Below are positions 6,036 to 46,071 of a DNA stretch of 64,000 nt, in pieces. Under the pieces are notes generated by a model that worked only from the letters and a program-made list of their open reading frames with translations, had not been told where the DNA came from and did no database searches. Source of the stretch: Amphiscolops sp. MND2022 (lineage: Eukaryota); NCBI GenBank assembly GCA_964187785.1, contig OZ076409.1, positions 69,876,001 to 69,940,000 of the forward strand, in the 5' to 3' direction. The first letter of the stretch is position 1; each line of letters opens with the position of its first letter. The translations under genes and the position numbers were made by a program.

Positions 6036-8199
6036 TGCTTCAGCGCGATTTTCGAACCCGCGTACTCTTGCTTCTCAGAGCGCTTCACCGGGCCTATAAA
6101 TCTGAGTACTCCGCTTCCTCCTTAGTAAAACGCAACTTACTTCGAATATAAGGTCAAAAATTCGGATATAGCGTGCTGAGACAAATGGAAGCGCTTTTTT
6201 CGAACTTCTGCCTCCTCTTTAGTAAAACGCAATAAAGTTCGGATATAACGTCAACAATTCGGTAATAACGCAAATTTTTCGAAACTCCACCTCCAAAATT
6301 CGGACAGTATTGAAAAAATATTTGGTGCATATATATAGAGATTAACAGACAAAAAATCTTCACTTTATAACTCCATCTAGAAAATGCTAATTTGGATATT
6401 CTAGTCACCATGGCGTAGTTCGAACCCGTGCTAATGCGTTTCTTTTTTAGCGGAAAATATCCGGCTGCTTAGCGGGTGTCTTGTTGCGTAGTATTGTTTC
6501 AGCGATAGGTCGTATCGGGAATGTGACAGTTTGGCGAAGTTTGTTGCTCAGATATGTCTTTTTTAGATTTGAATCATGTTTTAAAGTCACAGATCCTAAA
6601 AAGTGAATAATGTTCCCGTGGCGGATCATCTTGAACACTATTGTTCTAAGAGTTGCCCGCATAAACATTCATAAATTCAATCCACATGTGTGCCCCCAAA
6701 CAAAATGAGGCGTAGAACTAGAAAATGGCTGCAAAATTTGGTGTATACAAGTTTAAAGAGATTTCGTTTTGAAAACCTAAGTTTTTAAAACCTAAAAGTG
6801 AAGGCTTAAGTTAACCAGCATCACAAATTAGCGTGAACAGCTTCAGAAGTCATGAGTAATGACGTCATGAACGTAATAACCCGGATGCAGCTCAAGTTGT
6901 CACTGATGTTAGTCAACAGATTGAGAGTCACGATAAATTTGGGATATTCTACCTCATGTATTCAGATTATGAACTGGATAAGGTTTTAAAAAACACGAAG
7001 ATTGTTTGCCTCTAAAAAATGCTTTTAATGATGAAGACAATTGAATTAGGTTTCATCTCGATTGGAAGAAAAAACAAATAAAGGCCGTTTTTGGAAAGAA
7101 CAAAATAATTGAAAATAAATTTTAAAATATTATTTGTATTCAAAAACTTCCTGAAACCTCTCGCGTGTCATTCAGACCGACACTTTTTTCTAAGCGTGAA
7201 AAAATGAAGAATTTTCGTTTTCTCTGGATCTTCCCCCAAAAGAACTGAAGATAAGCATGTTATACCCAGTAACATCTTCGGCAACATTATCCAACCTGGA
7301 AGAAATCTGAGAACGTAAATGAGGATGTTGTGAAAACAATACCACTTCGGTGAAATACCACTTTGGAGCGGAAAACTAGAGATTACTCTGTCGTTGGGCA
7401 AGTGACAAAAACAGACAGCAATGCCGACGAGATTCGTTAGTAATACATTCCGAATTTTAGGATTGAGATTTTATGTTCTATTTTTACATACCTAGAATAG
7501 TAGATCTTCCTATATCGAACTACAATAATTTTGGATCTTGAACCGTTGTACTTAAATATTCCGTCGTACTGTGATTTCAGACCTAGTTCCGTCGTTCAAC
7601 GAAAGCCGGAATCTGTTTCACAGGTTCTAGATAGAGATTCGCCGTTTCTGTATTTGTTTTCAATGCAGCCTAAAATCTTCCAAATTTCAAGCAAGAATCA
7701 AATTTCATGACATACTCTTAGAAAGCAAAATTTTAACTACGTTTTTAATGTTAAAAGATCAAATTTTTACAACGTTCATCATCAGCGTCTCCTTCATTAT
7801 CACGGTTTTTCATGGCAATGCATTCGATTTCACGGGTAATCAATGTTGACGTGAAGCGCAATGTAAAGAATTGAAAAGATACAGAGGGTAGATAATAAAT
7901 TTCTGGTCGAATCCAAGAATTTTCATAACGCCGTTTTTAATCTAGGCTCTCAGGCAAATGATTTCTTAGAACATTCTCACCCTAGACAATGTTAGACAAT
8001 TGGCAGGTACTTTCACTCATTGTATACGACTATCATGTTTCACACGTTTACTACATTTTCCTTTAAAGTAAATGTTTACATTTTACTGATCTTCAGTGTT
8101 TGTTACAAAAAATGTTAATGTGGCATCGCCTAACTGAACACATACGGATTAATAAAATTACAACGCAACTAACAACACTGGCACAAGAGTAGTTTAAAA

Positions 8200-11153: not shown

Positions 11154-14100
11154 GTAAGATGAAGTTCTAAATAGTTTTGTCACATTCGGCTGACTAAAAA
11201 TTCAACTCCTGAAGTTTTCCACCATCCAAAGGACTCCACGTTTGGTTTCGGTTTTCAAAAAAGCATCATATATTTTTTTTCAATTATGACTAGTCATTTT
11301 CTCTTTTTGGTTCAGTTTCATTTAACCCAAGTTTCGTGTAACTTTCCCAATTGGGAAAGGATAGCCTTATCGAAATTACTGTCATGAACGCTATGGTCTT
11401 ATTTGCAAAATCAAATCAAAGAGAATGTATGACGATATAGCCTTGTCGCAGGCTGCCGCCTGTGACGGTACGACAGTGACTACGTCAGCGAACGGACAGG
11501 AGTTCGTACCCGGAACACTACCCATCTATTGATCAGGCTAAACTTTACACTTAGGACTTTCACGCCATTTTGTTATTTAATACATATTATGTTTGTTGAT
11601 GTTGCTAGTTTTAATATATATACTTGCACATGTAAAAATAGTCTGTTAAAAGTTACATTTGAAGATCCAAACAATATAATTGTGATTTCAAAGATTGAAA
11701 GGCGCTTTGTAATTGTAAACGTAATCAGAATATGTGGCAATGTAGCTGTATAGCGTAAAGGAAACGAGTTCAAGTGAACGAAACGCCTCTTCCGAAGACG
11801 TCACTTGAGCTCAGCATTTTAGCCAATCACGTCGCTTCTCTCTGCTATATTAGTACTGCTTTGATTATATAGTGGCCGAGTATGGCCAATTGACTCAATA
11901 TATATACTTCACCACACACTCTAGTCAAATGGCCGATTCCGGCCACCTCGATGAAATGAGTTGTATATTCTTGTAATTAACAAGACTAATCGGAAATTGC
12001 TGTAAATGTACCCCTAATGATGAATGAAAGCTTCCATACCGCTCAATGGACTTAATAGACCTAGTGCTAATTTAAAGGCTAAATAAGGCTTTTGCCCTCC
12101 CTTATTATAGTGCTGGATTAATAAACCGGATTTGTCCATTTTCGGCCTTGTAAGAAAGTGTGCTACTTTGATAGTGCAGTATTATTTTAAACAAGCTGAA
12201 CATCTAATATTTGATTTTGTTCCAACCCATGTTAAATAATAGACGCGTGGTAACGCGTGTCACAGTGACGTTCTAAAGAGATGCCTTTCACATTCCTTCA
12301 GTGAATATTGGTACTTGTTGACAAGATAATGGTGATGATATTTTCATGAATACGATACTTGAAGGTGCGGTTTGTATACCTACCGAAATGTTATTCATTT
12401 GATGTTGAGTTCTCAGAAATTATCTGAATGTCGGGAATAAAACCGATTGGGATTTCACTCAAATATGTGCTTTGAAGTGTTGAATACTTCACCAGTTGTA
12501 ATGATGATGTTTACCTCGTGACCCGTTAAGGCCACGATCATGTGATGTTCTCTTAATCAAAGAATCCGTGGAATGTGGCTGTCACTTTTTGAGAGTATAT
12601 ATACCCGTGCTTCTAGAGGAGAAGTCATAATTTTCACATCTCTGCTTTGATAAAGATTGAATTGATATAACGATTCCCAGCTAGTTTTCCGGTTTAAATA
12701 ATTAAACTATTTGACCCGGTCTTGTCTTGAGGCCTGTAACTAGGAAACAAAAGAAAGCGAGGAAATCGAGAGCAATTGGGATGCTCTCAGATATAGAAAA
12801 CTTAGACATCATGCTTGATGAAAACCATTATAGCAGGAATGAAAGGGATGAGAGCGTCAATAGTAATTAAGCTAGGAGACCAAGAAGTGTCTCAGGAGAT
12901 GAATTTGAAAACAATGGTGAAAACGATTATCTGGGGACAGCTGGCTTTGACCCCGGTACAAGTGCCAATCACGGCCAAAATTCAAGAGAGGGTAATTCAA
13001 GTGCCGAGATCAACAGGTTGTCAAGTGAGTTGAACTCAAGATTGTCTAGGGAACTAGATGATATGATGAGTAGTGTTAATACCCAGATCCAGAGGGCAAT
13101 CAGTGATGTAATTAGCGGTCAAATTTTACCGCAGATCCAATCCGTCCTAAATGCCGGATCGGGACCAACGACACTAAATAAATGGAACGTTCCGTCCGAG
13201 AGACCGGAAATGAATTCCGAAGAGACTTACGGTGAGAAAGCCAAGAAAAGCAATAGAAGTGAGCAGCGCTTTGATTACCAAAACGGTAATCAACCTAAAC
13301 TACGTGCTTACGACATGGTGACAATAGACAACGAATCTCCAATCGAAGCTCCTGAGTTTCTCACGGGACGAATGCCACCCAGAAACCATCTTCACAGTTC
13401 CCACGACAACTTCGACCCACTACTAGACACGACGATCCAGCACAAGAAAGGACTGTTCAGGCCCCTGAACTAGATCCAATCAACCGACTGGCTGATGTCC
13501 TGACAAGCATGCAGAATCGTCCTTCAGCCCAACAGCTCACTATCCGCCCAGTCAACTCAAACACAATGACTTTCGATGGCAAAAGTGAGAAATTTGAGCT
13601 GTTCGAGGATCTGTTCCACACGATGATCAATATACAGCCTGAAATGTCTGAACAAATGAAAATTAATCATTTTCATTCGCTGCTAAGGAAGAACGCCTCA
13701 AAAACATTCCGAAACATTAGCACAGCTAATGGACAGACCCTTGAAGACGTATTAGTCATATTCCGACGAAAATACGTCAAACCCGAGTCCCAAGCAACTG
13801 CCAAACACAAATGGCACCGTCTGGTATTCGATCCAAACATAACAAAACTACCAGATTTTCTTGAAGAATTGAATCAAGGTGCAGAAAAAACGTTTGGAGA
13901 CAACGCCCAAAAGATGATTGACAGCCTCCTATACGCAAAACTGCCACCGAAACTAAAAAGATCAGTTAACGTGGCTAGACTAGACAATGGCTTCTATGAT
14001 GAAATCGTCGCTCACCTCGAGAGAGAGTTGGAGTTAAATGCTCTTGAAGAGTCCCATGACCTTCCAATGGCATCAATGACATCTTCAACCCCGAAAACCA

Positions 14101-17100
14101 AAACTGTTCCGTCCAAGGCGCAGATGAGTGACATCACATGCAACTACTGCAAGGAAAAGGGCCATATGGTCAAGGATTGCGAGAAACTCAAGAAGAAAAA
14201 GGAGAAAGAAGCCCAACAAGGCAAACCGACCCAGAAAAAGACTTACCCCAAATGCAGTACTTGTGGCAAAACCAACCACCCTGAAGAGAGATGTTGGCAG
14301 GGAGCAGTTGCGCACCTTGAACCCAAACGCACCAGACCAGAGGACGCGTCAGACAATGATCCTGACTCTAAGGCCTCCAAGCCCCACTACAAGACAACAT
14401 CATCCAGCTCTCAATCTTCATCCAACAAAGATGATTCAAAAAACTAGCTTTGCCACGACTCTAATATAACCAACTAGTCTCTGTCCGACAATACATCAAA
14501 TCGGACCCTCCAAATAAAAACTTTCACAGTTACCAACAACAATTGATGGGCCACCTTCTATTGTCTGGCAGCAACAGATGGACAAAGCTGTCATCATTAC
14601 CTATAACAATACCCATTTATTCCAAAAACCAATTCCTGTTTGGGACCCTGACTACACAACCACCTTTGCCACTCGGTTCAGGCCTATTCCCCTGATCGAT
14701 GATTACAATCCAACATACATCGAGCCAGACTATGGCAGAGATCCTTATTGGGACACCGAGATTTATAACCAGGACCTAATGCAATTCCAGTATGTTCTAG
14801 ACGACATTGAACACTACAACAAAACAGTCCACGAGAACCCTCCAATTACCCACAACAAGAAAACACGGGCAAATGAACGATGGCACAAACCACCCAGTGT
14901 TCGCAAACCCCCTGGGGAACGAAACTCCTGAAAATACTGCCGAATCAATGCCACAATCACTAATAGACGAGAAACAATTCCAGAATGTTCTCATAACCAA
15001 AGAGGGTGAACCAGACTGTATACCCCTGTCAACCAACATTAATCTCAAATGACAGAGTCCTAATCAGGACCAATTCACTACTCTATCCCGAAAACGCTGT
15101 GACTGGCATTTTACAACAAAGTGACCTCCTACATGAAGAAGGAGACATCACATTTTGCCAAGCCTTGGTCACCCTGAATGACGGCAATATATCGATACCA
15201 GTGAACAATTTCACGGACCACCCTTACAAACTCAAAAAGGGAATTCACATTGCTAATTTCTCCGTCATGACGCCAGAACAGATGAAGTACGTCAAACAGG
15301 TAGACCCGGCATCAACCTGGCACCTTTTGCAAAATGACCTAAACAGGCAGCCCATTACGTCAGCAGCCTCATCAAGACGAATAAAAATCCTAAAAATTCT
15401 GAAAATTACTGGTTTTACCCACATCCAGGAAGCCCTGGAAATCCCGAGGAACACACGCCTATCCAGAAACGAATTCTACGTGAATTACAGGCCTTACAGG
15501 ACCTGGAGACACTCGACCCCACCAAAGATGAAGAATCTCGTGCAAAATTTCTAGAAAACTTTGATTGGAAAGTTTCCACTCTTACTCCTGAAGAAAAGGA
15601 GAAAATTGAGGAATTACTAGTGGAATTCCATAATATATTTGCACGACACAGATTTGACATAGGCATGAACGAGGAATTCAAGGTGAAATTGACACCTAAG
15701 GACGATTCCCCAGCCTACAGTCAGAGCCTCCCAGCCCCTACCAACCCAAAGGAGGACATCTTAGTCGAATTGGCCATGTTAAAGAAATATTGCATAATCA
15801 CCACCCTATTCTCGAAATATGCGAGTCCAATATTCGCACAAAAGAAACCGAATGGAAAACTCAGACTCTTGGTTGACTTGAGAAAAATCAACAACCTCCT
15901 ATCGGATATTACATAAACAATAATCACCCCGTCAGTACTTTAGTCGACGCCGCCCAACACTTAGCGGGCAAAAAACTGTTCTGTAAATTAGACTGCTCAC
16001 AGGCATATCACTGCCGGCCGATGGCTGACCAACGATCGATTGAAATGTTGGCCTTTAACTTCGCCAGTCGCACATTTGCATACAGACGTTTGGCACAAGG
16101 TCTTAGCCGGGCTCTGTCCGCGTTTTCGAGCTTTCTGAGAGAGTACCTCGACAAAGTCAATAAAGCGGATCAGTGCGCCCAGTATGTGGACAATATCGGC
16201 ATCGCAGCCAACGATGCTGACCACCTCATAGCTAACCTCAGAGCAACGTTCAAATGCATTCAGGAAGCTGGCCTTAAGTTGACAATGCACAAAGGTCACT
16301 TTGGTGCAAAAGAAATTGATTTTCTCGGACGGACTATTACTCCACAAGGCGTCAAACCCCAGAAACAGAATGTACAGAACTTTCTGGAAAAGACCAAATT
16401 CCCGAAGTCGAAAAAGGCTTTACAACGCTATTTGGGATTCCTAAACTACTACAGGAATTATATCCCAAGACTTTCAGAACGCCTTGCTCCATTCTACAAG
16501 ATGCTGAAAAGTGACGAAAAAGTCCTAGTATCGAAGGAATTAGTCCAGCAATTTGAAGAAATCAATAAAGCCCTAGACAAATGCTGCGACTTGGCCCTAC
16601 AACAACCTATCCCGATCAAGCAAATTGCACTAATGACTGATGCAAGTTTTGGTGCAGCTGGATATGCGGTCTCCTAATTGAAGACGACCCAAGCCAGAAA
16701 TTTACGTCACTCAGAAAGTCCTATGCCCCTGTAGCATACGGATCAAAAACCTTCACCCCAGCCCAGATCAAAATGTCAGTTTATGCCAAAGAATTCCTTG
16801 CAATTTATTTTGCATTCAAAGAAATTGGACATATCTTCTGGGGTGCGCCGAAACCGGTCATTATCCTAACTGACAACAAAGCTGTAACACAATTTTTCCA
16901 AACAAAAAGAACACCCCCAGCCCTGTGGAACGCGTGTGATTATGTCATTCAGTTCAATTTTGTAATAGCGCACATCCCGGGGCACAAAATACAGCTGCGG
17001 ACTATTTATCCCGCTTGGAAGCAGTCCCGAAGGACAAATTAGTAATGAAAATACGCGAAGATGTACAAACCCTACCAATTGAAATAAACGTCCAGCCCGC

Positions 17101-20100
17101 AGGAGTGTCACAAGAAGAACAAATCTTTTATACTAATGATGACGACGAGATAGAAGAACAATATTGGGCACGAAAAGAGGTGATCAGGAAAAATCCAGTC
17201 GTTGATGAGCCCACTGTTTCAATACAAACTCTGTCCACAAGTTTGGTCAAACAACACCCTGATATACAAGTCCGATTAAAGAAAACGAACCGAATCATTA
17301 TCGAACAATCCAAAGATGTAGTACTACAACAATTCAAGGCAAAACTCCTCCATGAAGAGTATTCAGAAAACCTACTGTAGCAGGATGCTCGATACAGACA
17401 TTACGCAAACAATCTGGAACGAATTGTACTTAAGGACGAGATCCTGACGAGGCAATACTTTGATGAAACAGGGAACGTTAAAAACCACCAAGTTCTGCTC
17501 CCGTAGCACTTACTCCAGGAATTGCTCCAGTCCCTTCATAGAACAGCGACTAAACATCCTGGTATCTCAAAAATGTTGCAGGAAATTCGCCAACGGTATT
17601 ACTACCCTAGCATGGCTAAACACGTCAAAAAATGGGTAGAAGGGTGTGAAGAATGTGCAAGAGACAAACGAGTCCCTGATGCAACAATTACGCCCGAACT
17701 ACTCAATTTGCCCGAATGGGACCTTGGACCCGAAGACGCCATGCAAATCAACTTATTGCCGAATCTTCCCCCAAGTGGAGGCTACGAAAACGTCCTAACA
17801 GCAATTGATGTATTCTCCAGATATTTGTTGGTCTGTTCCCTTACGGAGGCGTCGGCGATCAATGTAGCAAAAGCGCTCATTGACATTATGACCAAACATG
17901 CATATCTACCGACAACGCTTATTACTGACAAAGGTACTGCAGTTACTTCTACAATCATTGCGGAGATTACGCAAATTTTGGGCATAACACTCAAATGTGC
18001 AACAACAAAACATCCGCAAACAATTGGGAAATTAGAGCGGACCCATGCCTTACTGAAAACAAACCTCAAAATGGCATGTGGAGAATATCGCCGACAATGG
18101 CAAAAATACTTGCCATTAGCAGTACTAACTCACAACACTAGTTACCATGCCAGCATCGGTTGTGAGCCGACAAGATTATTTCATGGAAGAATTCCATATA
18201 ATATCTTGGATCACAAGCTTGGAAATAATCCAAACGAGCAGGTCAACCCAACAACCAAATTCGCTGAAGAAATACAAAACCGGACAAAAATCTTGATTGA
18301 CAAAACAAAGCAAAATATTATGCAGTCATATATCAAGTACAAAGAATATTATGATCGCAAGGCAAAAGCCGCTCCACTAAAGGAGAATGATTACTGCTTT
18401 GTATTACAGCCGAAAGCGGATCATCAAGGATCAAAAATCCCATTCCGTGATTATAGGTGGGTCGGACCATTCATAGTCCAAAAAGTTCTACCAAACGAAA
18501 ATTACATTGTACGACGAATCAATACAAACAAGACTCAAATATTGCATCGGATTCGCCTTAAAAAGTTTGTCCCCAACCAACCGCTTGAGGACATTTTCCG
18601 AGAACAGAGGTTACAGCCTGATGAAGAAATTGTTATTCTGCAAGATGACTTATATATCATAACGTGGGAAACAGACTTTGGCGAGCAGCTAATTACACGA
18701 GGACACGATCCTATTCCGACTAGCCTACCGAATCGCGAACAGCCGAATGCGGCAGAACCGAGTCATAGTGACGTAGACGAGAATGAAGCGGATTACATAA
18801 TCGCGAGAGACGAAACAACTTACGCTGACCATGCGGAGCAGAGCCGGAATGAAAGACTAAATGATGACGTCACTAAAAGGAATGAAGCTAGTGAAGCGAC
18901 TAGCAATGAAGAATCTGATTGGCTGAATCCGGCCGTCTACCCAAAAAATCAAGAAAAATCTTGAAAGACTGAAAAATGATGAAAAATTTTCAAAAAGAGT
19001 CTCGATGAATGAAAATGATGCACAAAAATCTCCGAACAGGGGGGATGATATTATCGTGCCCGAAATATCTGAAAATGATACCAGAAACGAAAGTCTGAGC
19101 CCTAGAGGAGGGATATATAATCTCAGGCCTAACCCTAACCCAAACTACTCAGAAGACTTCAGATACTAAGAATTGAATTCTTCCCGAAAACGGCAATTCT
19201 TTTCTACTATCTTTCTTTTCGTTTTCTCTGGTCCCTCTAGTATCTTTTGAAAAAGTAATGGGACGAATGATAGACCCTCTTCAAATGAATAAATACAGGG
19301 GTTGAAAGATACAAACAATAAAGAAACAGAAATCAAGGGCAAATGAAAGAATAAATACAACAAAGAATAAACAAAGTCCGTGAACTAGCGTACATAAATA
19401 CATATATACAAGTTACTTTTTGGAAGTTGAGTGCGTGGGAACACTGGTGACAGATGAACTAGATGACCAAGACTTTGCACTGCCCATTCGTCTTCTCTTT
19501 GTACTACTCGGGATTTGCAAGGCGAACTGTTCAGGTTTAGGAGAAGTTTCTCGGGGATCCAAGCTGACAACGTTTACTTGAGGGCCTTCAGCTGCTACAT
19601 TGTAAGAAGAAAGTAGGGCTTTATAGATTTTGGATCGTTCAAACGTGTCCACTTAATCCCAAGGATCATAAGTGGGGGCAAATGCAGTCCTTCCGAAATC
19701 AGAGGTAAGCAGGGAGAATTTCGACAAACTTGAATCCTGACTGCAGAACGGGATTGAATCGGGAACCCCAGACAAATAACTCTGTCCCGGCAACACGACA
19801 TCAGTGAACCTTCCATGAGGGCCCGTAAGACCAGTGTTACCAAAGGTAACAGACCGGGAATTCTCCACTTCGAGCCGTAATGCACAAGCAACACACTTTG
19901 AAGAGGTGGAGAAGACGTGGCTTAGCACGGAGGAAATCAACCCCATAAGGAACTCGATTAAATCAGCAGACAAATCTGGGAAATTGAAGTCAGCCGGATA
20001 AGTAATTCGCAAATGGTCCATCAGACCAAGGTATTCTTCGCGATAAGAAGATTAATCAGCGCTCGTGACCCAAGATCGTAAAAGGAAAGTATTATAAAGT

Positions 20101-23100
20101 ACTTCAAAATGCCGCAGAGCAACATCAATCGGACGGCTAAACGGGATGTGAGGATTGAAAGCTGCCAGGCCTTGGACCAAGTGAGAATTCAGCCCCACCT
20201 GGTGCAGGACTCCTTCTATCATATGTTTGATGAAACTGAGCGCCTCCTGAACAAAATCGCTCTTCACTTCATTGATCGTTTTTTGGATCGTGGCCTTATC
20301 AGGTTTCTTGCCAACTAAGAGACCTTCAGCTTTGATCTTACTAGCTGCAGCAACCTTCGAAGAAAGCTTCAGTCGAATCAAGAAATCCTCCACTTCCTTG
20401 AAATTCCCCTCTGCTGTCTTGAACCCCATGAGAAGGAACAAAGAATTCTCCAAAGGAACAGTATCAGGGGTGAAACAGCGGGAACAGAGCCGGTACACAA
20501 ATTGACTAGCCTCACCAAACAGGTGGAAGGACGCGTCACGTCGCTGGTGGAGGTTAACTACGAAGCTGGATAAATCTACAACCATAAAAGGAAAATGTCC
20601 GAAACAGGCAGAACAAAACAAAAGAAAAACTACAAGAAGCCACTAACAGTCGTTGACAAGTCGTTGGAAGAACTCAAATTTGACAGTGACAAACTCGTCG
20701 CAATTGAGCGACCACTCAAACCTCTGCACCTGTGAAACACAAAGACTTCGTTAACACTCATTAGGAAATTATTGGATTGTGCAGTTCAAAAGAGCTCTAA
20801 ATCAATCACACAGTGGGAGGTTTGGGACAAATAACCTACTCTGCTTCGGACTCCTTGACCTTCCTGTCTGGCTGAGTGGACGGTTAAATAAGTACGCACA
20901 TTCTTCCATTGGTTGATCAGCTCAATACACAATGTGGGTAAGCCTTTAAGGTCGATCTTGCATGAAGAAACTGCCTAAAACAATAGAACGAGTGAAACGG
21001 CCGCCCTTTATCCTGAACCCGTGATTTACAACAGGTGTTGTACCATCCCGCTGAAGTTCGGTGGACTCTAGGACCCAATCCTCTGCTTGAGACCCACCCA
21101 GAGAGACCAGGAGAGCTTGCAATACTGAAAAGAAGTCAATCTTTCCAAAGACGCTGTAACTGCCTTTGTGCATCAATGTGAACAGCGATAAGTGCTCGAA
21201 ACGGGAACAACTTTGGACCCCTCTGGGGAAGTAACTGCAACGGTCGAGGGTGCGCACAAAGTCCACTGAACACCCGGACAACGCCACGATGTCTGCTCTG
21301 GTGGAGACCACGGAAAGGAACCGAGACAATGATCCTAGTTCTCCAGTAAGTTGCGATGATGGGAGCTTACTCCGACATACGAAGATGCGGCACAACTTTT
21401 CATCCTTCCAAAAGCGTACACTCATATGACGATAAGTGCCGAAATCTTCAAATTCCACTGAGAAACATTGTTCGGCAGCTACCACCTGGGCGATGTCGTC
21501 CATTGCGCAATTGAAGATATGCTGAAATATGGCCTGGAAAAAACACGAATACTCAACACCGACTAGTATAATACCCCCCGGCGCCAAATGTGGATTATAC
21601 TTACAGTGAGACGTCCTTCGCCCCAGTCAAAATCACAAAGCGTGGCCTAGTAGTTTGTGAAGGAACCGATCCTTGCCCACAAATTGCGAAGCAAAGACAG
21701 GTCGCCGTTTGTCTGGATGTAGTCCGAGATGATGCAGATTTGGGTCTTGGCCCGCGAATCAGGTGTCACCAGCGCTGTGAAACTACCTTTGAGGAAATCG
21801 TCATAGAAGGGGAAACGCTCCCCTATGTCCACCAGTTCAGAATGGATAAACTTTGGGAGCTCCTTAGCAAGCTCAATTTTAGTCAGCATTTTCCCGTTCC
21901 GGCCTCGTACTCTGTGTTGGACTTTTCCGCTGATGGGATCAACACTGCGAAGGTGCTCGTATCTCCACCTTTGATCGCGTCTTAAATGCTCCTCTGATCT
22001 ATGGTGCCGTATGATTTCGAAAGTGCCTTTAGTCTTAATAGAGATGTTTTTCTTGCATATGTGGCACCACACCATGCAAGGATTATGCAGCGGGTCAGCA
22101 GGTCCAGAGATGAAGGACCGTGTCCAGCCAATTTTGGAGAAAAACTCCTCTCTCATGGGGACCCCTCGCTGGACTGCCCCGGATTTTCTCTTTGTCTTCT
22201 TAGATTGGGGAGCTGTGTTAGTCCTCTCCTCAATTGCTGCTTCCCTGATTGCTGACAACGTTTCATCGGGACAACTCATTTCACTAGAGGTTCCAGCTTC
22301 GGCAGATCCGATCGGGATCCTTGTGGCTGAGGTGCGTTGCCCGGATCCGCCAGCAGTAGACTTCTGGAATGATTCGGCGATCAAAGCCATTTCCGCTGCA
22401 CTGTCTGATTCCCCATAGCTCGTTGACATGTCCTCTCCAACTGAGGTACCTGAAGACCCTGGGACAGGTGGGCCAGAACACGAATCACTTTCCGTTCCTC
22501 CCTCGCTAGTGTCACTGTCCATACGAGGGTGGGGAGTCTGGGCCCGATGTCGGGACCGGAAATGGTCAGTCCGTGACTCTGCAGTTGTTGGGGCTCCCCT
22601 TACCGCCCCTAAAACCATCTTCGCCATAGTTGTGAAAGACTGACTTGGTGTCTCATTGGTGAGAGTTTTGAGAAGGTGATATAATTGTGGCTCACTGAAT
22701 GCCACTGTAGGATGTCCGACTGGCAAGGAGAATGGTGGCGTTTCATCGAAGAATTGTTTGAGTATTGCACTGCTCCTCCCGGATAACTCCTGAATAGGAA
22801 CATTTGTTGTACGCCCTGAAGCTCCAGGTTCCGCCTGGATGGCAACCTCGGTAGCGGGGCCCGATTCGTCTCCTCCCTCTGTTCCTGACTCTGTGTCACC
22901 AAAAGCAGCATTTCGGGTATGGTGATATCCTAACCTACTTATCTCGTCTTCAGTTTTTTCGGCGTCACTCAGTTCGATCGGGGGTATTTTTTGAGTTGAC
23001 AACCCGGGCAATGCTGGAACCTCATATATAGAAGATGCGGTATCTTCGCCAGCAGAGAGGTGTGTTCCAGAGTGTTCTCTGATGAGGGGTGCTGTAACGG

Positions 23101-26100
23101 GGACCAATTCGGGCAAGCTGGACTCCGCCGTAGTTGTAACCCTGAGAGCCGACTCGAGGGAAGTCGAGCTAGAGGAATGCGCCTCACCTTGGCTGATTGG
23201 AACTGGGGTACTCGTCCGGATTCGGTTTGCGTTATCTAAACCTGCTGTCGTTGGTTCAGGGATTTGCTGGGTTTGAACCCCCGTGTTTTCGACTTGCTCC
23301 GTCCCAGAAATTGAGGATTTCTCCTTCAAACGTACAATGTTATCGGCGTACGCGTTGACATCTTCATCTCTACCATCTTCTTTTGAGGATGTCCGTCGGT
23401 CAAATTGAATTGATTCTCAGGCTCAAGGCCCATACTACCAATTTCGGTGCGGACTTGGACAAGGGTTGGATTTGGTGTCGAATGATTTTCTTATCTTGGA
23501 TTTTCTAAACAGAAAGAGATGAATTTTCGCGGTAAACTTCCTTGGAAAGAAACCATTAAGCCGCATTGAAAATATTCCGGAAGTGTTTGAAACGTGAATG
23601 AAACGTGCTACCACGTGTTAGATGATGGAAACAGGAAGCACCTTTTGAACAATTTAGCTCTGATCAAGTTAAACTAGTTCAAATTCTAAAATCCAAACCA
23701 ACCTGAGTCAGAAGACATTTTCCTGTCGAAGCGTTGTGTTTTGGGAAACAGTCCTTGATCGGCTTGGATAGTTGAGGAATAGGGCCGAACTCGGCTGGAG
23801 ATGAAGGAAAATTGGAGAGGATCCAATGGGGAAATAGCCACTAATGGAAGTAAAGGTGAGAGCAGCAGTATATCGTTATCAGAGATTCGGATGAGTGGAT
23901 AATACAAATATAACAATTGCAAGAGTGAAAGGAATTGGAATATGACAATAATCAAGAAGATTGAAAGTTGGAGTTCGTGGCTAAAAGATATTACCAGACT
24001 AATATTATACAATTATCTACATAATGTAAAATGTACATGGAGTCTGCCAGTGAAATGTACAGGAAGCGTTCATTATTTACAGTTTAATTAGTTAGTGGCC
24101 GAATATGGCCGTTTACCATATTCTGTTTTGCTGTTCCGTTCCGTTATCCCTGTTATAATAATGTAAAATGTACATGGAGTCTGCCAGTGAAATGTACAGG
24201 AAGCGTTCATTATTTACAGTCTAATTAGTTAGTGGCCGAATATGGCCGTTTACCATATTCTGTTATGCTGTTCCGTTCCGTTATCCCTGTTATCCTTAGT
24301 TAGAATTTTCGCCATTTTGGATTATTTTAGTTATTATTTTCGCCATTTTATTTATTCATTTTTCATTCTATCAATGGGTGTTTCTGATTGGCTGAGGCCA
24401 TTTTGAGAAGATTCGGTGACGCGTGCCATTAACTACTAGCAATCGACCCGTCAATTACCCACTTGAAATGACGTTATTTGTTGATAACAACTCAAAGGCT
24501 CTTCTCTTACCCACTTGAGAAATGATATTAGGGGGGCTTACCATCTACAATTCAAAGAAGCGATGCCGCTAAAAATTCCATTCAAGAAAAGTTCACGACG
24601 ACTCAGGACTTACCCTAAGAATTTACCGCCGAGTAGGAAACCCGGGAAAATATCCTAACTCGGCCTGTGACGGAATTTTGATAAATTCATTCTGTCTCAA
24701 ACTGTATCAATAACCAGTTGCCTTATCAGCTTCGGAAATTGCTAAAAAATACATAATGGAGAAACTCAATCTCAAGAAAGTTGTTCGATTTTGAAGCATA
24801 CGACTCCGATAATTCCGATAAATCAGTGATTTATATATCCAGCAGTGAGGACGAGTCTTCAGACTGGGAAACAGACTGCTCGACGGACACCGAGCAGCTG
24901 ATAGCCCGGATTGAAAGAGAAGTTTCCTCCAGCCCCATGCTAATCGGAGGCAGGATAATGACCATGGATGAACCCGAAGACGAGGCGAGAGCAGGGCCGA
25001 GTACATCTCAAGTGGAAGAAGGAGTGACACCGAAACTAGGCCATAAATATTTCGATACAGAAATGTGCTTTGCCCCACCAAGGAAATTTGAAAAGAAGCG
25101 CATAGAGCTCTGTAACACAATAATGCCCGTCCTAGAATCGCCTATGTCTCCCCCGGAGCACAAGAGGGGGCCAAGTATGGACACCCCCCTTGTCCAGCCG
25201 ATCTCGAGTAACTTTCATGCGTCCTACCATGTGCAAAATACAGTACCCTATCCATTAGAGTGCACAGGCAAGCCTTATTTGCTCAAAGCGCAACATAGTG
25301 CTTTCAATATCTCGGATTCCACGACCATACCTTTAACCGTGCAAAATTGGCAAATTACGTCATTTGTCCCGGATTCCACAAACAAGCATTCCACGGACAA
25401 GCAGCGAAATTTTCGTGTCCCGGATTCCACGAAAAGCAGCAAAAAGCTTGCCTGTGCACTGTAATGTCAAAATGTCAGTGAGGTACGCTATATATGGTTT
25501 GCGGCCGCTCAGTGGATACAATCAAGAACGAAAAGGTGAAATGGTATATGCAACGATCTACACCAAGAGATGAGCCTGAATACATCACAAGACTCAGGAA
25601 GGAGGCGTATGAAAACGGACTTAATGCTGGCTGTTTTCTTTCCATCACACCCGCAGTGTCGCAGGCTGCCGCCTGTGACAGTACGACAGTGACTACGTAA
25701 GCGAACGGACAGGAGTTCGTACCCGGAACACTACCCATCTATTGATCAGGCTAAACTTTAAACTTAGGACTTTCACGCCATTTTGTTGTTTAATACATAT
25801 TATGTTTGTTGATGTTGCTAGTTTTAATATATATACTTGCACTTGTAAAATTAGTCTGTTAAAAGTTACATTTGAAGATTCAAACAAAATAATTGTGATT
25901 TCAAAGATTGGAAGGCGCTTTGTAATTGTAAACGTAATCAGAATACGTGGCAATGTAGCTGTATAGCGTAAAGGAAACGAGTTCAAGTGAACGAAACTCT
26001 TATTCCGGAGACGTCACTTGAGCTCAGCATTTTAGCCAATCACGTCGCTTCTCTTTGCTATATTAGTACTGCTTTGATTATATAGTGGCCGAGTATAGCC

Positions 26101-29100
26101 AATCGACTCAATATATATATATTTCACCACACACTCTAGTCAAATGGCCGATTCCGGCCACCTCGATGAAGTGAGTTGTATACTCTTGTATTTAACCATA
26201 CTAATCGGAAATTGCTGTAAATGTACCCCTAATGATGAATGAAAGCTTCCATACCACTCAATGGACTCAATAGACCTAGTACTAATTTAAAGGCCAAATA
26301 AGGCTTTTGCCCTCCCTTATTATAGTGCTGGATTACTAAACCGGATTTGTCCATTTTCGGCCTTGTTAGAAAGTGTGCTACTTTGATAGTGCAGTATTAT
26401 TTTAAACAAGCTGAACATGTAATATTTGATTTTGTTCCGACCCATGTTAAATAATAGACGCGTGGTAACGCGTGTCACGGTGACATTCTAAAGAGATGCC
26501 TTTTACAATCCTTCAGTGAGTATTATTATTTGTTGACAAGATAAAGCTGATTATAATTTCATAAATACTATACTTGAAGGTGCGGTTTGTATACCTACCG
26601 AAATGTTTTTCATTTGATGTTGAGTTCTCAGAAATTATCTGAATGTCGGGAATTTAACCGATTGGGATTTCACTCAAATATGTGCTTTGAAGTGTTGAAT
26701 ACTTCACCAGTTGTAATGATGATGTTTATCTCGTGACCCGTTAAGGCCACGATCATGTGATGTTTTCTTAGTCAAAGAATCCGTGGAATGTGGCTGTCAC
26801 CTTTTGAGAGTATATATACCCGTGCTTCTAGAGGAAAAGTCATAATTTTCACATCTCTGCTTTGATAAAGATTGAATTGATATAACGATTCCCAGCTAGT
26901 TTTCCGGTTTAAATAATTAAACTATTTGACCCGGTCCTGTCTTGATGCCTGTAACTAGGAAACAAAAGAAAGCGAGGAAATCGAGAGGAATTGAGATGCT
27001 CTCAGATATAGAAAACTTAGACATCATGCTTGGTGAAAACCATTATAGCAGGAATGAAAGGGATGAGAGCGTCAATAGTAATCAAGCTAGGAGACCAAGA
27101 AGTGTCTCAGGAGATGAATTTGAAAACAATGGTGAAAACGATTATCTGGGGACAGCTAGCTTTGACCCCGGCCGGTACTAGTGCCAATCACGGCCAAAAT
27201 TCAACAGGGGGTAATTCAAGTACCGAGATCAACATGTAGTCAAGTGAGTTGAACTCAAGATTGTCTAGGGAACTAGATGATATGATGAGTAGTGTTAATA
27301 CCCAGATCCAGAGGGCAATCAGTGATGCGATTAGCGGTCAAATTTTACCGCAGATCCAATCCGTCCTAAATGCCGGATCGGGACAATCGACACTAAATAA
27401 ATGGAACGTTCCGTCCGAGAGACTGGAAATGAATTCCGAAGAGACTTACGGTGAGAAAGCCAAGAAACGCAATAGAAGTGAGCAGCCCTTTGATTACCAA
27501 AACGGTAGTCAACCTAATCTACGTGCTTACGACAAGCCTTGAATTTTGTCCCTCAAATTGAAGCCAGGTAATTTCGCAGTTGTAACCTGATTTAACCTAA
27601 AACTTATAAAATTTTTTATAGCTTGAAAGTATCAGAATCGCCTCATTGTGCTTGTTTTGCGGAGCTTTGGTGGGAGTGGAAGACATTTGTGTGGAACAAA
27701 CAAGCTAAACGCTTCTTCGGAATCGAACCCAGACAGTGGGCACGGATACTAATGGTCTTCATCTGGAGTATATGCATAACTTGCGCACTTTCTATCGCAG
27801 TCGCTGTTTGTTGGCCTCAGATAAGTAGTCCCCAAAAACGTGAGTGAAACTTCATTTAAACTGTTCATTCAAAAATTTATTTCCCATAAGATTGTCAATG
27901 ATAAACACATTTCAGTTTCAACACTGAGATACAAATAGAAATTGTTTTGAATAGTTTTAGTTCGAATTGAAAAGTTTGAAGGTATAATGAGATTTTATTT
28001 GTTCTTTTCTGCAAGACTATAGTGCACCAAATAAGGACACTAAATTCAGTTATTTCTTGGTTGCTTTTTAATTTTCAGAGAAACAAACCAAAATGTTGCC
28101 TGCGCATTCTCACTTGACAATTTTTGCGATGACGGCGCCTTCGGTCAATCATCGACAAACAGTTTTGAAACTCTTTAGATTCACTGTACACAAGTACAAT
28201 GCAATTAAAATGATGCATGATATGCAGTTTCGAGGATCATTCCATGAGACATGAAAAAGATTCAGTCAATGACCGATGCTCCATGAACATTGATCTGTAA
28301 AATCTGCAACTTTCGATGAAGCACATTTGTAACAAACCAATAGCTCATGACACTTGATTTAATCTTTCGTGTACTACATTTAAAAAACCACTGATCATGA
28401 GAAAAAATAGTACAAACCATTTTACTGTCTTGATTTTGTTCAAAAACGTTCACAAACACTTTTCTGTAAAGGCTTTTTCCGAGGATTAACACAGCAAAGT
28501 GGTAACAAAATGGAAACATCTCCAGCCTCAAATCCTGAAAATATAGGTTCGACGCAGATATTCCTCTTTTGGTCGGCCGGGTTGGCCCTACGTGCTAGTC
28601 GTAGTATGACCGCAACATAACGATCGCAGCACCATCTCGCTAAAATAATTAGCTGTGATCGCGCCACGATTCCTACCACAAATGACGTACGTGACGTCAC
28701 GTGAAAACGTAGTAAGATTGTATATCACGAAATGTGTCAGAGAGCTCAAATACAATGTCCGCAACGCTGGCTAAAAACGCAAAAGAATTATTACTTCACT
28801 TTCTAGCTTCAAAAGGTCGTGAAATGAATAAATTATGAAACAATTTACTACGCTTTGGTATTAACTGAAAGAACCTTACAAAACATGCATTCCGTAGTAA
28901 AATTCTTAGTACGAATCGTGGTATGAGGTCCATAATTGATACGATCTTACTACGATAGGCGTGATAGTTCTGTGAACGTTAATGTAATTTTTTTAAAAAG
29001 ACTTTTCGAACTTTTCATGAAAACGTTCTTCTGACTAAAAGACTTTAGACGCTCCCAACTTGTTAGATATTCAATTTTATTTTCAAAATTTCAAGAATTA

Positions 29101-32100: not shown

Positions 32101-35100
32101 GTCACATCATTGCAAATTTTGGCTTCATGAAAAAAAATTCAAGCAATTTTTTCAGAGATAGTCTATATAGACAGTTATCGGATTATCAGCATAGTCATTA
32201 GCAGTGTTTCAAAATGAGATGAATTTGAGAATGGAAACAATGGATCAGCAAACAAAGACGGCACAGAAGAGCTCTCTTAGTATGCGGAAATAACACCGCA
32301 AAAAAGTTAAAAGTTACATCCCCAATTGAAGCGGCCGGGCAGGCAGTTTTTCATGGTGCTTTCATGCATACAAGGCTATATATATATTCTACGGAACATG
32401 GAAAATTCCTNNNNNNNNNNNNNNNNNNNNNNNNNNNNNNNNNNNNNNNNNNNNNNNNNNNNNNNNNNNNNNNNNNNNNNNNNNNNNNNNNNNNNNNNNN
32501 NNNNNNNNNNNNNNNNNNNNNNNNNNNNNNNNNNNNNNNNNNNNNNNNNNNNNNNNNNNNNNNNNNNNNNNNNNNNNNNNNNNNNNNNNNNNNNNNNNNN
32601 NNNNNNNNNNTGACAAGATTGGTTCAAAGAGGCCCCAGCGAGTTTTGAAACCCTGATTGTCGTCTTTTAAACGCGTTAGAAACTGTTTGTCAGACTTGAA
32701 TACTTTGGGAGATATTGCGGTTTAAAGTTTAAGCACCAGATTTTTGGACGGATCCCGAAAATTAAACCTCCATTCCGGGTTAAATCAAACTTTGATTTTT
32801 TTTCTAAAATTTTAAAATTAAAAATTTGAATCAAAGATCTTTTTCTTCACCGTATCGATCATTTTTTGTTCTCACACTTTATTAATTTCTCAAGCACCTC
32901 TATTTTGTTATCATTGTTAGTCTATTAGCACTCTAACTACGCTACTATGAAACTTGACAGAAGTTTACTTGTTTCAAAATGGAGGCGCGAATAACGTCTA
33001 AAAATAACTTCTAAGATCCTATGTATAAAAGTAGGAAATGATCATGACTTGGTTTTAGACGTTATTCTCGTTTGCGGTAAAATTGATGAGGTCTCGGCTG
33101 CATCTGAAAATAGAACTGCTTTTATGAAATCTCCAAAACTTCGTGGCTCTGAATCCACGCCAAATTCAGGATCATTTTTCAGGATCTTGATAAAATTCAA
33201 TGGGAATAGTGAAATTTTAATGCATGGAAGCTTCTGCGACTTTTCTATGAGAGCATGAGAAATTTGCTTGGCAAACAACAAAAAATTGTAAAAATTCAAG
33301 AAGTGTTAATAAGGGAAAACAGAAGAAAGAACTACATAGTGGAGTAGCTTCTCTGCAATTAAACTCCAGAAATTGAACGTTTTTCGTGAACAGCCGAACT
33401 GTCTTTCTTTCAAGATTTTAAGGATTTTAAAACTTTTGACAACAGAACAATAAACCACTACGGCGGTCCATTACTTTATAAAGACTGACTAACAATTCTA
33501 GTGGCCGTTTCAATCATCTTTTTTAGACAACCGTCTCTCAACGGAAGTGAAAGCATATATGCTTTCACTTCCGTTGAGAGACGGTTGTCTAAAAAAGATG
33601 ATTGAAACGGCCACTAGAATTATTGGTCAGAGTCGCTCGGGCGGTTCAAAAAAACAATTGACAGCGAAATACTCAAAACCAAGTTACCATCGAGTTGCTT
33701 GAGAGAAAAGGAAAGAAAATTGCAAGATAAAAACCAGATAAAACGTCAATGAGAGACTGATGACAAAAATTTAATTTGGCCGATTGTCCATGAGAACCGT
33801 CCTTACCGTTCTTGCTAAAAACAGATCCTCGAAAGTAGTTTCCAAGAGGCCGAAACCCTCCACATTATGTGATAGAACATGGGGCACGGTAGAAAACTAC
33901 AGGGTCATTCGAAAATTATGTCTCAAAACTATCTTCAAATTGTGAGAAATTGGTCAAACTTACCAAGAATTTTTTTGTTTTTTATAGAAAGTTCAATAGA
34001 AAACCACTGGCACTTTTGAAAACTTTTTTTTCGGTCATGAACAAACTTATTCAATATTCGAAAGCGATTAAAGCTGTGTGAAGATCAGAATGGAGGTCAT
34101 TTCTAGCACCTCAATGTAGATTAACAAACTTTTTAGGCATCGAAAACAAAAGTTCCATATATTGTTGAAAATCTGTTACAAAGTAGTTACGTTCTAAATA
34201 GTAGTTTTTGAGATACTTGAAATTAATTTCTGAAAGACCCTGTAGAAGAGAGAAAGGCATCCCGCATATGGGGATTCAGCTTGTCAGGCGCTTGACAATG
34301 AGTAAAGAGAAATACATACAGATGAGGCATATTATAAGAAACTATGACACTTTTGCTTTCTTCTTGAAGAATGTCAGCTTTAATATTGAACTCCAACCGA
34401 AATTTTTGGCACTGATAAGGAGAGTTTTTCAGTTACAAAACAGCGGAAAACTTAATACGAGGCCGAATGAAGAAAGGTTAGTCCGTCGAAACTAACTGTT
34501 TGCAGTTTACTAGTTTAAACAAAATTTTGTCTGATTTGATGATTCCTACGTCCAAAAAATTCGGTCTTCATTGAGATAGGCCAGCACACGGCCATTATGA
34601 ATAAAAAAAGAAGAATATCAGCCGCGCATCATCGAATTGGAGAAAAATTCATCTCATCTTCTTATATTGCCGTCACCGGAGAAACAAAATCAGAGGCATT
34701 GAAACATACGGCAAGATTTCCATAAAACACGGAGAGGACGAAGGTTGCGACTTGTTCAAACGGGAAATCTACAGTTGGGATGGACTGTTGGGATCGGCCG
34801 TTGGGATTGACTGAATAACCCTCATTCAGCCTCTTCCTCAGTTTCCCGCTGTTTTTGTAATAGAAAAACTCCCCTTCCAAGGGTCAAAATTTTTGTATAT
34901 TCTCCACGGAAACTCTCTGAGTTGAAAATGAAGCTTGCGATTTGGAAAGAACAAAACTTGTTTTCGATCTAATAAAAACTATGAGTGTATGACCAGAGAG
35001 CTCATGCGCAGAAAAATAAAACTGACCCAACCGCGTTACCATACACTTAAGAGTTTCATATTTCAAGTACACACGGGGTCCCCCATGAAACTTTGAATGA

Positions 35101-36537: not shown

Positions 36538-37333
36538 GTAGGGTTCGGCTGTTACTCACTCCAGTCGTAAGGGGACTGACTGTTGGGAAATACCCCAGCC
36601 TGATCTGGGGTCTCCCTGACCTACTAACAAGTACGATGTCCATCTTGATGTTTGCTAGGTTGTTTTGAATACATTATTTATTGCCAAACCTGAAGATTTC
36701 CATTGTACAAGTTTATTGTGACGATTAAAAAACTGATATATCAGCAACTTTTTGAAAAATCTGTCATTGCGAGTTGTGCCGATTTTTACCTCTGCCATGG
36801 ATTAAAAGTGGGTTTGAATCTAGCTTAAGACTCGAATTACTTTGTTTTTTACTATTTTCCGCCCATATTCCATATGAGAAGGGAAAAGATTAAAATCAAA
36901 CTGTTTTTTACACAAAGTTTGCAAAGCATCAATTATATATTCAAAGTGAAGAGTGTCACCCTCAGAATTCAGCTCACATAAATTTAGCTCGGTGTGAAAT
37001 GTATTGGTAGAGATTATTGGACTTTTTTGAGAATGACGAAAATGACCCCATAATACCAAAATGACACCGATAAAACCAAAAACTCCAAAACTTCCCGATC
37101 TTTACCGTTTTTATGCATTTTTTGTCAAAAATTCACATAGAGTAGAATGCTGAAAACGATCACCAAGGCAAGAATTCGTTGTTTAGTGGTCGTTGATGAA
37201 GCGATAAATGCATTTTTAACCAAGAAAATCACCAAAAATGACACCAAAAACACAAAAAGTCCAAAAATTCCCAATTTTTGTCGTTTTTTACAATTTGTAT
37301 CAAACTTTCGAAAGATTTCGTAAATTAGAATGC

Positions 37334-37591
37334 TGTCACGAATAACTCAATGGATTTTCTGGATGAGTTTATCAATGGACTTTTCATTCCAATCAATTTC
37401 ATGATAACCTTCTCATTCACGACTTATTCACTTTTTTGGTTCTACTTTGCCTTGACTGGTCAGACATTCCTTGCTCTCATTGAATTATGGACATTATCAT
37501 ATAGACTGAATGTAACAAACTATGATGAATGAACGTTGACATTACTGAATAAACGCAAGAGATTTGTAACTAAACCCACCTATTTCTAACA
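37334..37591 (+). repeat. BEL/Pao 5' LTR
   Basis: TGTCACG...TTCTAACA with AATAAA near the 3' end; repeated at 46228. Confidence 0.93.
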
Positions 37592-37605
37592 TGGCGCCCA
37601 ACGTG
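37592..37605 (+). promoter_or_regulatory. Primer-binding site complementary to tRNA-Lys(CUU)
   Basis: TGGCGCCCAACGTG is the first 14 nt of the well-known tRNA-Lys1,2 PBS TGGCGCCCAACGTGGGGC, directly after the LTR. Confidence 0.9.
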
Positions 37606-37872
37606 TTCTTGGCCCGAACCTACGAAACAACCCTGCAATTCCATTTTGCTCTGCAAAGATACTTTGAGGGGATAAAATTGAGAAACAATTTTCAAATTTT
37701 GTTTGGTATTTTCTGAGGGTATCTAGTGAGCAAACTTCACCACGGTCTAAATATCCATCACATTTGTCTAAATTTCTTTCCAACAAGTCCTTCCGCCTTT
37801 TCTTTTCCATTCATCCGCTTTTACTCAAAAAACCCCACTTCAAATCGATAATTTGTTTGGAAATACAAAACG

Positions 37873-45649: not shown

Positions 45650-45889
45650 CTTTCTACAACTGCATGGCAATTCCGAGGAATATCGAGTTCTATTTACAAT
45701 TGTGATATTCACACAAAATCAGATGATGTACATCTTACTGAGAAAGCACTGAGCGGTATCAAATCAATTCTAAAGAAAAAGATACTTCGAAATCGATTCA
45801 ATGCAGTTTTAGACAATGTTGGTCATACAAGTTTATCTATATCTTCAAGGAAGTGCAGATGTGGATCTGCAAGAAATTCTTATTGCTGA
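45275..45889 (+). CDS. SGNH/GDSL-hydrolase-like protein (204 aa) encoded after pol in the BEL/Pao element
   Basis: Block I LLISDS, block II SIPGG, block III VLFIGGNDL, block V DDVHL in the expected order and spacing; uninterrupted frame. A truncated copy lies at 43128-43502. Confidence 0.8.
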   Translation: MINMRYHTFKSSTTKNLLISDSQAKNLFFSNFNILSIPGGRIKDVWLFLPSPGEYEIIVLFIGGNDLFEFQRLSGTSSKSAADQLSELAEHLKELSSKVFIIGIPPGMNQPERSLAVNSLLAETSLSTTAWQFRGISSSIYNCDIHTKSDDVHLTEKALSGIKSILKKKILRNRFNAVLDNVGHTSLSISSRKCRCGSARNSYC

Positions 45890-45927
45890 ATCAAAGTTCC
45901 GTCAATTTTGAGATACTTACTGCTTTC

Positions 45928-46071
45928 TTCAGTCCCGGTACTTTTTTTAAGTTCCACCGGCTAAACTATTCGCAGTTTTTTCAGCCCCGGTACTTGTTTA
46001 AGTTCCACTGGCTGAAGTATCCGCAGCTCTTTTCAGCCCTGGTACTTTTTTAAATTCAACTGGCTGACCGC
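45928..46071. repeat. ~3 diverged ~52-bp tandem units in the BEL/Pao 3' region
   Basis: TTCAG(T/C)CC(C/T)GGTACTT..TTAA(G/A)TTC..C(C/T)GGCT repeated three times. Confidence 0.8.

Follow-up and report, generated by a model that had tools for sequence, protein, structure and literature searches.

An antisense, probably spliced gene with a predicted hAT-like fold in a Ty3/gypsy retrotransposon family of Amphiscolops sp.

The window analysed here is a stretch of 64,000 nucleotides from Amphiscolops sp. MND2022 (GenBank assembly GCA_964187785.1, contig OZ076409.1, positions 69,876,001 to 69,940,000 of the forward strand), and coordinates refer to it unless another locus is named. At 11444-27534 it contains a decayed copy of a 16.1-kb Ty3/gypsy element with a 5-bp target site duplication (TSD). 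Between pol and the 3' long terminal repeat (LTR) of this element lies a gene in antisense orientation, with five exons and a product of 1,269-1,270 amino acids (aa) according to a comparison of 30 copies. Judged from its conserved sites and frames, the gene is probably spliced. The element and the gene are composed as follows.

11439..11443, no strand: left TSD, AGCCT (flank comparison)
11444..13315, plus strand: 5' LTR (TG...CA), with the gag start inside it and TGGTGAC, resembling a primer binding site (PBS), directly after it
12787..14447 (start approximate), plus strand: gag, broken here, with a zinc knuckle (Pfam DUF1759, zf-CCHC)
14997..18964 (start approximate), plus strand: pol fragments, broken, with reverse transcriptase (RT), RNase H and integrase (Pfam RVT_1, RT_RNaseH, Integrase_H2C2, rve)
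21605..23556, minus strand: exon 1, a Ser/Thr/Glu-rich region of about 470 aa and a C-x2-C-x16-H-x5-H finger (30-copy comparison, homologue alignment)
21534..21604, minus strand: intron 1 (splice sites in 30 copies and in distant subfamilies)
21048..21533, minus strand: exon 2, predicted RNase H-like core (structure model)
20975..21047, minus strand: intron 2 (family donor 21047, non-canonical in the window copy)
20840..20974, minus strand: exon 3 (30-copy comparison, homologues)
20730..20839, minus strand: intron 3 (absent in homologues P0040, P0114 and P0168)
20648..20729, minus strand: exon 4 (30-copy comparison, homologues)
20576..20647, minus strand: intron 4, phase 1 (absent in homologues P0125 and P0192)
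19413..20575, minus strand: exon 5, a helical region resembling an insertion domain, and a basic Ser-rich tail (stop codon 19415-19413)
25657..27534, plus strand: 3' LTR (self-comparison)
27535..27539, no strand: right TSD, AGCCT (flank comparison)

An earlier note, made from the window alone, had called the element an LTR retrotransposon, and this was confirmed. Self-comparison revealed the LTR pair as direct repeats with 95.7% identity (75 mismatches in 1,871 aligned bases), the LTR ends are TG...CA with AGCCT on both flanks, and a Pfam scan placed gag before RT, RNase H and integrase, which is the gypsy order.

The host genome (1.07 Gb) was searched with window positions 19300-23600, and 35 of 2,323 candidates were scored. 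At least 39 matches were obtained, and since only these 35 candidates were scored the count is a lower bound. The gene is present in at least 33 near-full-length copies, with identities of 82-100%, and the genome-wide collection proposed in the earlier note does not show a nested insertion. The gene model, the splice sites and selection were examined in 30 of these loci.

Five minus-strand open reading frame (ORF) pieces had been joined between pol and the 3' LTR, and this arrangement was recovered in the family together with introns 1, 3 and 4 as first drawn. The donors of these three introns are GT in all 30 copies, while the acceptors of introns 1 to 4 are AG in 30, 29, 29 and 30 copies, respectively. 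For intron 2 the proposed acceptor at 20975 held, but the proposed donor at 21029 did not. Of the 30 copies, 27 have a canonical donor at 21047 and 24 have one at 21029, and all five distant subfamilies compared use the site equivalent to 21047. Both donors retain the frame equally (10 of 30 copies are open either way), and the true donor is most likely 21047, where the window copy is one of three with a non-canonical site. The alternative donor at 21043 was rejected, as it opens none of the 30 copies.

The long spliced frame, estimated earlier at about 1,240 codons, also stands, with its start moved to 23556, which is ATG in 28 of 30 copies. After in-silico splicing, 10 of 30 copies gave an intact product of 1,269-1,270 aa. 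Intron lengths differ among copies and the lengths of exons 2-5 are mostly constant. The three stop codons already seen in the window copy (21649, 20054 and 19655) are real, but they are not the only lesions: a fourth stop is situated at 23493, and indels near 23413, 19942 and 19855 change the frame. Database homologues without intron 3 (P0040, P0114, P0168) read continuously across predicted junction 3, and those without intron 4 (P0125, P0192) across predicted junction 4, which indicates that intron gain or loss occurred within this antisense retroelement gene. For junctions 1 and 2 no homologue lacking the intron was seen, and the read-through proteins there bear inserts of 24-39 aa.

Protein searches of the host genome scored 107 of 7,723 candidates with exon 5, 150 of 6,348 with exon 2 and 109 of 7,806 with a 29%-identical homologue; these first-look totals (6,348-7,806) are not copy numbers. 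Many further diverged subfamilies coexist in the genome. Five distant ones, with exon 5 identities of 31-58%, all have the four introns at matching positions, where several inferred boundaries were off by one base and resolve to GT-AG. Among the distant elements, C12 has LTRs of 99.84% identity, the TSD ATAAC, an open gag, a pol of 1,738 codons and a five-exon antisense gene of 48-78% identity, and element C2 has the same layout. The LTRs of C6 are 99.66% identical and flanked by GTTAC, and its five-exon gene occupies the matching position, with an exon 5 identity of only 31.6%. At three additional loci the gene is likewise antisense and adjoins an integrase.

The 40 best LTR matches included 10 pairs within 25 kb. 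Nine of these pairs are at least 14.2 kb apart, which leaves room for the gene, and four of the nine were confirmed against the gene matches listed. Among the integrase matches, coordinates place an antisense gene next to six of the best 40; relatives without the gene may exist among the other 34. In four of four elements, the gene was flanked by no inverted words (8-12 nt long) accompanied by an 8-bp TSD, the pattern expected of terminal inverted repeats (TIRs). The antisense gene is a constant component of the family, and a simple nested hAT insertion was ruled out by the family-wide fixed position and by the absence of a TIR with an 8-bp TSD in the four elements.

In total, 672 homologue representatives were obtained at E <= 0.001. 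The homologue P0192 matched the host genome at only 27-31% and may derive from a different organism. JGI metagenome and IMG/VR contigs yielded no relatives, and a search among proteins of 677-2000 aa gave no full-length annotated homologue, which is weak evidence.

The test for purifying selection suggested in the earlier note was carried out. The ratio of non-synonymous to synonymous substitution rates (dN/dS) was 0.10-0.19 over the whole gene in eight between-subfamily pairs and 0.02-0.10 in the finger region of eight such pairs, while two pairs of near-identical copies gave 0.50 and 0.29. Variants common to at least four copies showed a ratio of non-synonymous to synonymous polymorphism (pN/pS) of 0.09, with 108 non-synonymous and 384 synonymous variants and no stops, as opposed to 0.45 and 27 stops for private variants. 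From this contrast, the gene is under purifying selection while its lineage replicates, and it decays once inserted. In the 30 copies, the gene is co-inherited as a block with the region upstream of it (Spearman 0.95-0.98).

In the predicted protein, the Ser/Thr/Glu-rich region of about 470 aa is followed by the finger, by about 635 aa up to the equivalent of the end of the Hermes catalytic domain, and by the basic tail. The WCxxC..H..H finger described earlier was substantiated: its four ligands are kept in 113/115, 112/115, 115/117 and 111/117 aligned homologue segments (95-98%). No zf-BED match was found for the finger in Pfam, though the structure model aligned to Hermes from residue 23.

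Two natural pieces of the protein were folded, separately and not as the whole spliced product: the finger plus exon 2, taken from P0269 with intron 1 read through (model 1), and exon 5 (model 2). Model 1 predicts the topology of an RNase H fold (three strands, helix, strand, helix). Foldseek placed Hermes chains at ranks 1-6 for this model (best E 0.011) and the P-element transposase at rank 34. By VIA, model 1 aligned to Hermes residues 23-264 (Z 5.7, root-mean-square deviation [rmsd] 16.2, 176 residues aligned) and to the Hermes structure 4d1q (Z 6.6, rmsd 8.3, 120 aligned). Foldseek gave no meaningful match for model 2, but in VIA its first 240 residues aligned to positions 366-572 of Hermes (Z 5.2, rmsd 4.5, 147 aligned), whereas the other 49 VIA rows cover only 41-81 residues. 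The ESM Atlas returned hAT-type Pfam sets for both pieces (0.88 and 0.79), to be taken as leads only; for both queries the ten best family matches fall within one family or clan, with a hAT-type family on top.

Ordinary hAT elements are present in the host, with at least 150 matches to the hAT dimerisation domain, of which four read as open frames of 610-668 aa. The spacing from strand 1 to strand 4 is 57-59 aa in the antisense protein and 65-68 aa in these host hATs, and onward to the position of the final Glu it is 390 aa as against 327-358 aa. A DUF4371 search of the host genome had zero matches, its controls being silent too. Measured against the thresholds of the tools themselves, each of the structural results alone is weak; a hAT origin is favoured because two non-overlapping pieces land in order on one protein, Hermes. 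On the strength of these models, the protein quite probably descends from a hAT-like transposase.

In Hermes, D180, D248 and E572 are required, and E572 is needed for every step, according to the available text of PMC2533014. In a by-eye mapping of the antisense protein, strand 1 carries Glu instead of Asp, and this Glu is unchanged among the 11 exon 2 sequences aligned. All 13 segments have Ser where the second Asp is expected, and the most distant copy has Thr there. The equivalent of E572 is variable, with Asp in 54, Pro in 41, Ala in 35 and Val in 30 of 219 segments, and others in the remainder. The CxxH motif is not retained at the equivalent positions and TRW was not seen in the exon translations, while CxxH and (T)RW are present or near-canonical in all four host hAT ORFs. 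As the second Asp, CxxH and the catalytic Glu all seem to have been lost, the protein most likely does not function as a transposase. A hAT origin combined with loss of catalysis is considered a likely history, given the predicted folds.

Two further features of the element lie upstream of the antisense start codon.

23557..23720, minus strand: putative antisense promoter or leader (motifs kept in five aligned lineages; function proposed)
24757..25464, plus strand: second accessory ORF, acidic, divergent from the antisense gene, broken here (conserved in relatives)

In the first of these, ACTTCCGGAA at 23584-23575 and AACTTGATCA at 23670-23661, both on the minus strand, are conserved in five lineages amid diverged sequence. 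We take ACTTCCGGAA to resemble an ETS site. An upstream ATG at 23718 (minus strand) with a donor-like site 16 nt on, at 23702, is also common to five lineages and may belong to a leader intron or an upstream ORF.

The conserved sense ORF at 24757-25464 had been overlooked before. In relatives it encodes 280-326 aa (e.g. L031:3955-4818 and L039:4678-5655, both minus strand) with a CxxC near the C-terminus, and no Pfam family scored above cut-off. It also has a hydrophobic-plus-acidic stretch, presumably similar to a SUMO-interacting motif. Its inheritance is independent of that of the antisense gene (Spearman -0.03 to 0.07, 24 copies). As it starts on the opposite strand about 1.2 kb from the antisense ATG, the region between them may be a bidirectional promoter.

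Two tandem copies of 137 bp are located at 24021-24294 in the internal region and contain a 17-bp motif that is also present in the LTR. Nine of the 30 copies have this motif upstream of the gene and three distant elements do not, so it was rejected as a general binding site.

The following history would account for these data. An ancestor of this Ty3/gypsy lineage would have taken up, in antisense orientation, the gene of a hAT-like transposase. Introns that run against the genomic RNA escape splicing and persist through reverse transcription, because the genomic RNA carries them in an unspliceable orientation. The gene would be driven by its own internal promoter just upstream of 23556 and its transcript spliced. 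Catalysis would have been lost, the zinc finger and the scaffold of RNase H core plus insertion domain retained, and the long low-complexity N-terminus gained. The product would then most likely be a nuclear, sequence-specific DNA-binding factor acting on the DNA of its own element, where binding would promote genomic RNA production or shield the element from silencing. Selection of this strength implies that a lineage benefits from its own product, and sequence-specific binding to the element's own DNA would be the simplest route to such a benefit. An activating or anti-silencing role of the protein is put at even odds. As a whole, the best explanation, with a probability of about 0.5, is taken to be an accessory gene of hAT origin whose DNA-binding product has lost catalysis and aids replication of its own lineage. 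A more specific version is proposed only tentatively: an entire, still-active radiation of animal LTR elements may have recruited a cut-and-paste transposase as an accessory gene that is antisense and spliced, the diverged alleles (31-58%) acting as lineage-specific activators or anti-silencers paired with a divergent, freely swapped second ORF.

Several results weigh against this explanation. Both models are mediocre, with a pLDDT (predicted local distance difference test) of 56 for model 1 and 66 for model 2, and for neither was there a Foldseek match at E <= 0.001 or a Z >= 8. The Mutator-like ISCth4 transposase ties with Hermes for model 1 (Z 6.5, rmsd 3.7, 98 aligned), as do generic RNase H folds (actin-like, integrases). 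No Pfam hAT profile, including Dimer_Tnp_hAT, matched the exon products or eight distant homologues, while both host hAT proteins used as controls (2/2) were matched. A PDB-sequence search yielded no hAT link, hhalign against hATs was negative with only four host Ac-type sequences on the hAT side, and the catalytic residues were mapped onto the host hATs by eye. The hAT derivation claimed in the earlier note thus found a weak structural match to Hermes in the right order but no link through Pfam, PDB sequences or hhalign; the structure check it had suggested, run on the two pieces, ranked Hermes first for the finger and exon 2, with no match at threshold level. With regard to function, the gene recombines against the integrase, with which its co-inheritance is looser (Spearman 0.74-0.78, 30 copies), and among the 40 best matches to the integrase no more than 4 adjoin one of the gene matches listed. 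This recombination and the few adjoining matches fit poorly with tight co-evolution of the gene with the LTR or the integrase. A motif common to the LTR and the internal promoter of each lineage was generally not found.

An integration cofactor is the alternative that survives best, though it is rather unlikely. Here a dead transposase would bind the ends of the complementary DNA or the integrase, and tether the intasome to chromatin or import it into the nucleus. It would make use of the retained DNA-end-binding scaffold, the basic C-terminal tail could serve as a nuclear localisation signal, and the linkage to the integrase, if partial, is consistent with it. In two cases, however, integrases 90-92% identical to that of the window adjoin antisense genes whose identity to the L012 protein is only 53% (exon 5) or 67% (exon 2). 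Close integrases beside diverged antisense genes argue against tight co-evolution. That only three TSDs were seen (AGCCT, ATAAC and GTTAC) also counts against a cofactor.

It is quite unlikely that the protein or its antisense RNA restrains the family or shuts out competing lineages, as a self-limiting repressor or exclusion factor similar to HBZ of human T-cell leukaemia virus (HTLV). Antisense genes at the equivalent position are regulatory in HTLV, as far as the available text of PMC11963269 and PMC7264820 goes, and many highly diverged alleles exist within this one genome. Strong purifying selection at the protein level in lineages that replicate is nevertheless more readily understood if the protein helps replication than if it is costly, and the family is very abundant, if first-look candidates (not copy numbers) are considered.

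An unchanged accessory role with another donor, namely a different insertion-domain DDE transposase (Mutator/IS256-like or P-like), has little probability. The tie of ISCth4 with Hermes for the exon 2 core, the P-element transposase at Foldseek rank 34 and the missing sequence link to the four host hAT ORFs would fit such a donor. Both pieces nonetheless map in order onto Hermes, the best ESM Atlas family matches are hAT-type in both queries, and the spacing from strand 1 through strand 4 to the final Glu is near that of the host hATs.

An active transposase, which would make the element a class I/class II hybrid able to move or excise as DNA, is very improbable: the invariant strand 1 Glu and the scaffold retained over about 635 aa are outweighed by Ser or Thr at the second Asp, the variable Glu position, the lack of a TIR with an 8-bp TSD and the 5-bp length of all three TSDs. 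A functionless nested DNA transposon copied along as a passenger, common as nested insertions are in general, is refuted by the selection data (dN/dS about 0.1) unless an overlapping feature is selected, of which none was seen, and it also disagrees with splice sites that stay constant while intron interiors change, with the same position in lineages only 31% identical and with the absence of a TIR with TSD.

The catalytically dead accessory gene favoured here can be compared with several known systems. The so-called aORFs of plant Tat/Retand elements (Grande gene23, RIRE2, Retand ORF4), cited as precedent in the earlier note and rightly so, are likewise antisense, situated between pol and the 3' LTR and present in most copies, as described in the accessible parts of PMC7264820, PMC11963269 and PMC4408406. 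Grande gene23 is reported there to be transcribed from an internal promoter of its own and to encode a nuclear protein. The available text of PMC7264820 calls the origin and function of the plant antisense aORFs unknown and describes them as unlike other transposable elements, and the word 'intron' is absent from that of PMC11963269. The gene described here differs in its four conserved introns, its length of about 1,270 codons, its hAT-like predicted fold and its probable animal host (the window also contains a BEL/Pao element, a type not known outside animals), and profile searches found neither TRP28 (PF04195) nor a plant mobile domain in its protein. Judged by sequence, it is not a member of the Retand/Tat aORF group.

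With HBZ of HTLV-1, as presented in the available parts of PMC10974842 and PMC11963269, the gene would share a spliced antisense mRNA (splicing being predicted here) and a nuclear regulator. HBZ is, however, an unrelated bZIP protein transcribed from the 3' LTR of a true retrovirus. Hermes, other hATs and the domesticated ZBED, FAM200/GTF2IRD2, ZMYM1 and DAYSLEEPER proteins show the order predicted here, from the finger through the RNase H core and the helical insertion to the final helix. In contrast to them, the antisense gene appears to have lost its catalytic motifs and has no TIRs, and its adopter is another mobile element and not the host. The element itself is not a hAT element, as it has neither a TIR nor an 8-bp TSD and the triad is not kept. 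The VANC proteins of VANDAL elements, which block silencing for these elements in the account accessible in PMC6719617, offer a functional analogy of an element-encoded accessory protein acting on its own family; they come from plant DNA transposons, and no homology to them was seen.

Animal LTR elements with extra ORFs include rotifer elements with GDSL and DEDDy ORF3s (PMC5408684) and the mussel element MchSLE-1 with an antisense ORF (PMC10974842). These encode other proteins, and the available text of both sources reports no transposase origin and no multi-intron antisense gene. In the open-access literature searched (closed papers, Repbase and supplements being outside its scope), no multi-intron, transposase-derived antisense gene was found in an LTR element.

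Antisense accessory ORFs of LTR elements have so far been mainly a plant matter. Here, an antisense accessory gene is family-wide and strongly selected, with a plausible source, conserved introns and many natural alleles, which makes testable now both the role of accessory genes in retrotransposons without env and the possibility that an enzyme of one transposon class is domesticated by a different class. If the more specific version proposed above is true, one transposon class has been domesticated by another, and a retrotransposon has gained a retrovirus-like regulatory module. Annotation pipelines would miss such a gene because it has no Pfam match, is spliced and is antisense.

Some details of the host element can be added. 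The gag frames that are open in relatives have 581-592 codons. The start of gag lies within the LTR (12787-13315), so that the 3' LTR holds a duplicate of it, and this overlap also occurs in young relatives. A candidate PBS, TGGTGACA, is found directly 3' of the 5' LTR in the window element and two relatives. A purine tract was sought beside the 3' LTR, where the window element and two relatives are pyrimidine-rich and C6 has only a 7-nt purine run. A pyrimidine run ending in ACACCCGCAG, at 25631-25656, abuts the 3' LTR and is common to two distant elements. Among 14 element ORFs scanned, there were zero matches to env-like Pfam families.

Elsewhere in the window, a BEL/Pao-type element at 36994-46834 contains an internal tandem duplication of 2,148 bp and, at 45200-45889, a GDSL lipase-like ORF reminiscent of the rotifer GDSL ORF3s. 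An intron-less ORF of 1,134 codons with a ZSWIM4-8 C-terminal domain is situated on the minus strand at 55523-58927, followed at 59552-63673 (minus strand) by a broken non-LTR retrotransposon with endonuclease and RT. A loop-less, near-perfect 73-bp palindrome occupies 33485-33630, and inverted and internal repeats at 46498-50769 suggest a non-autonomous DNA transposon.

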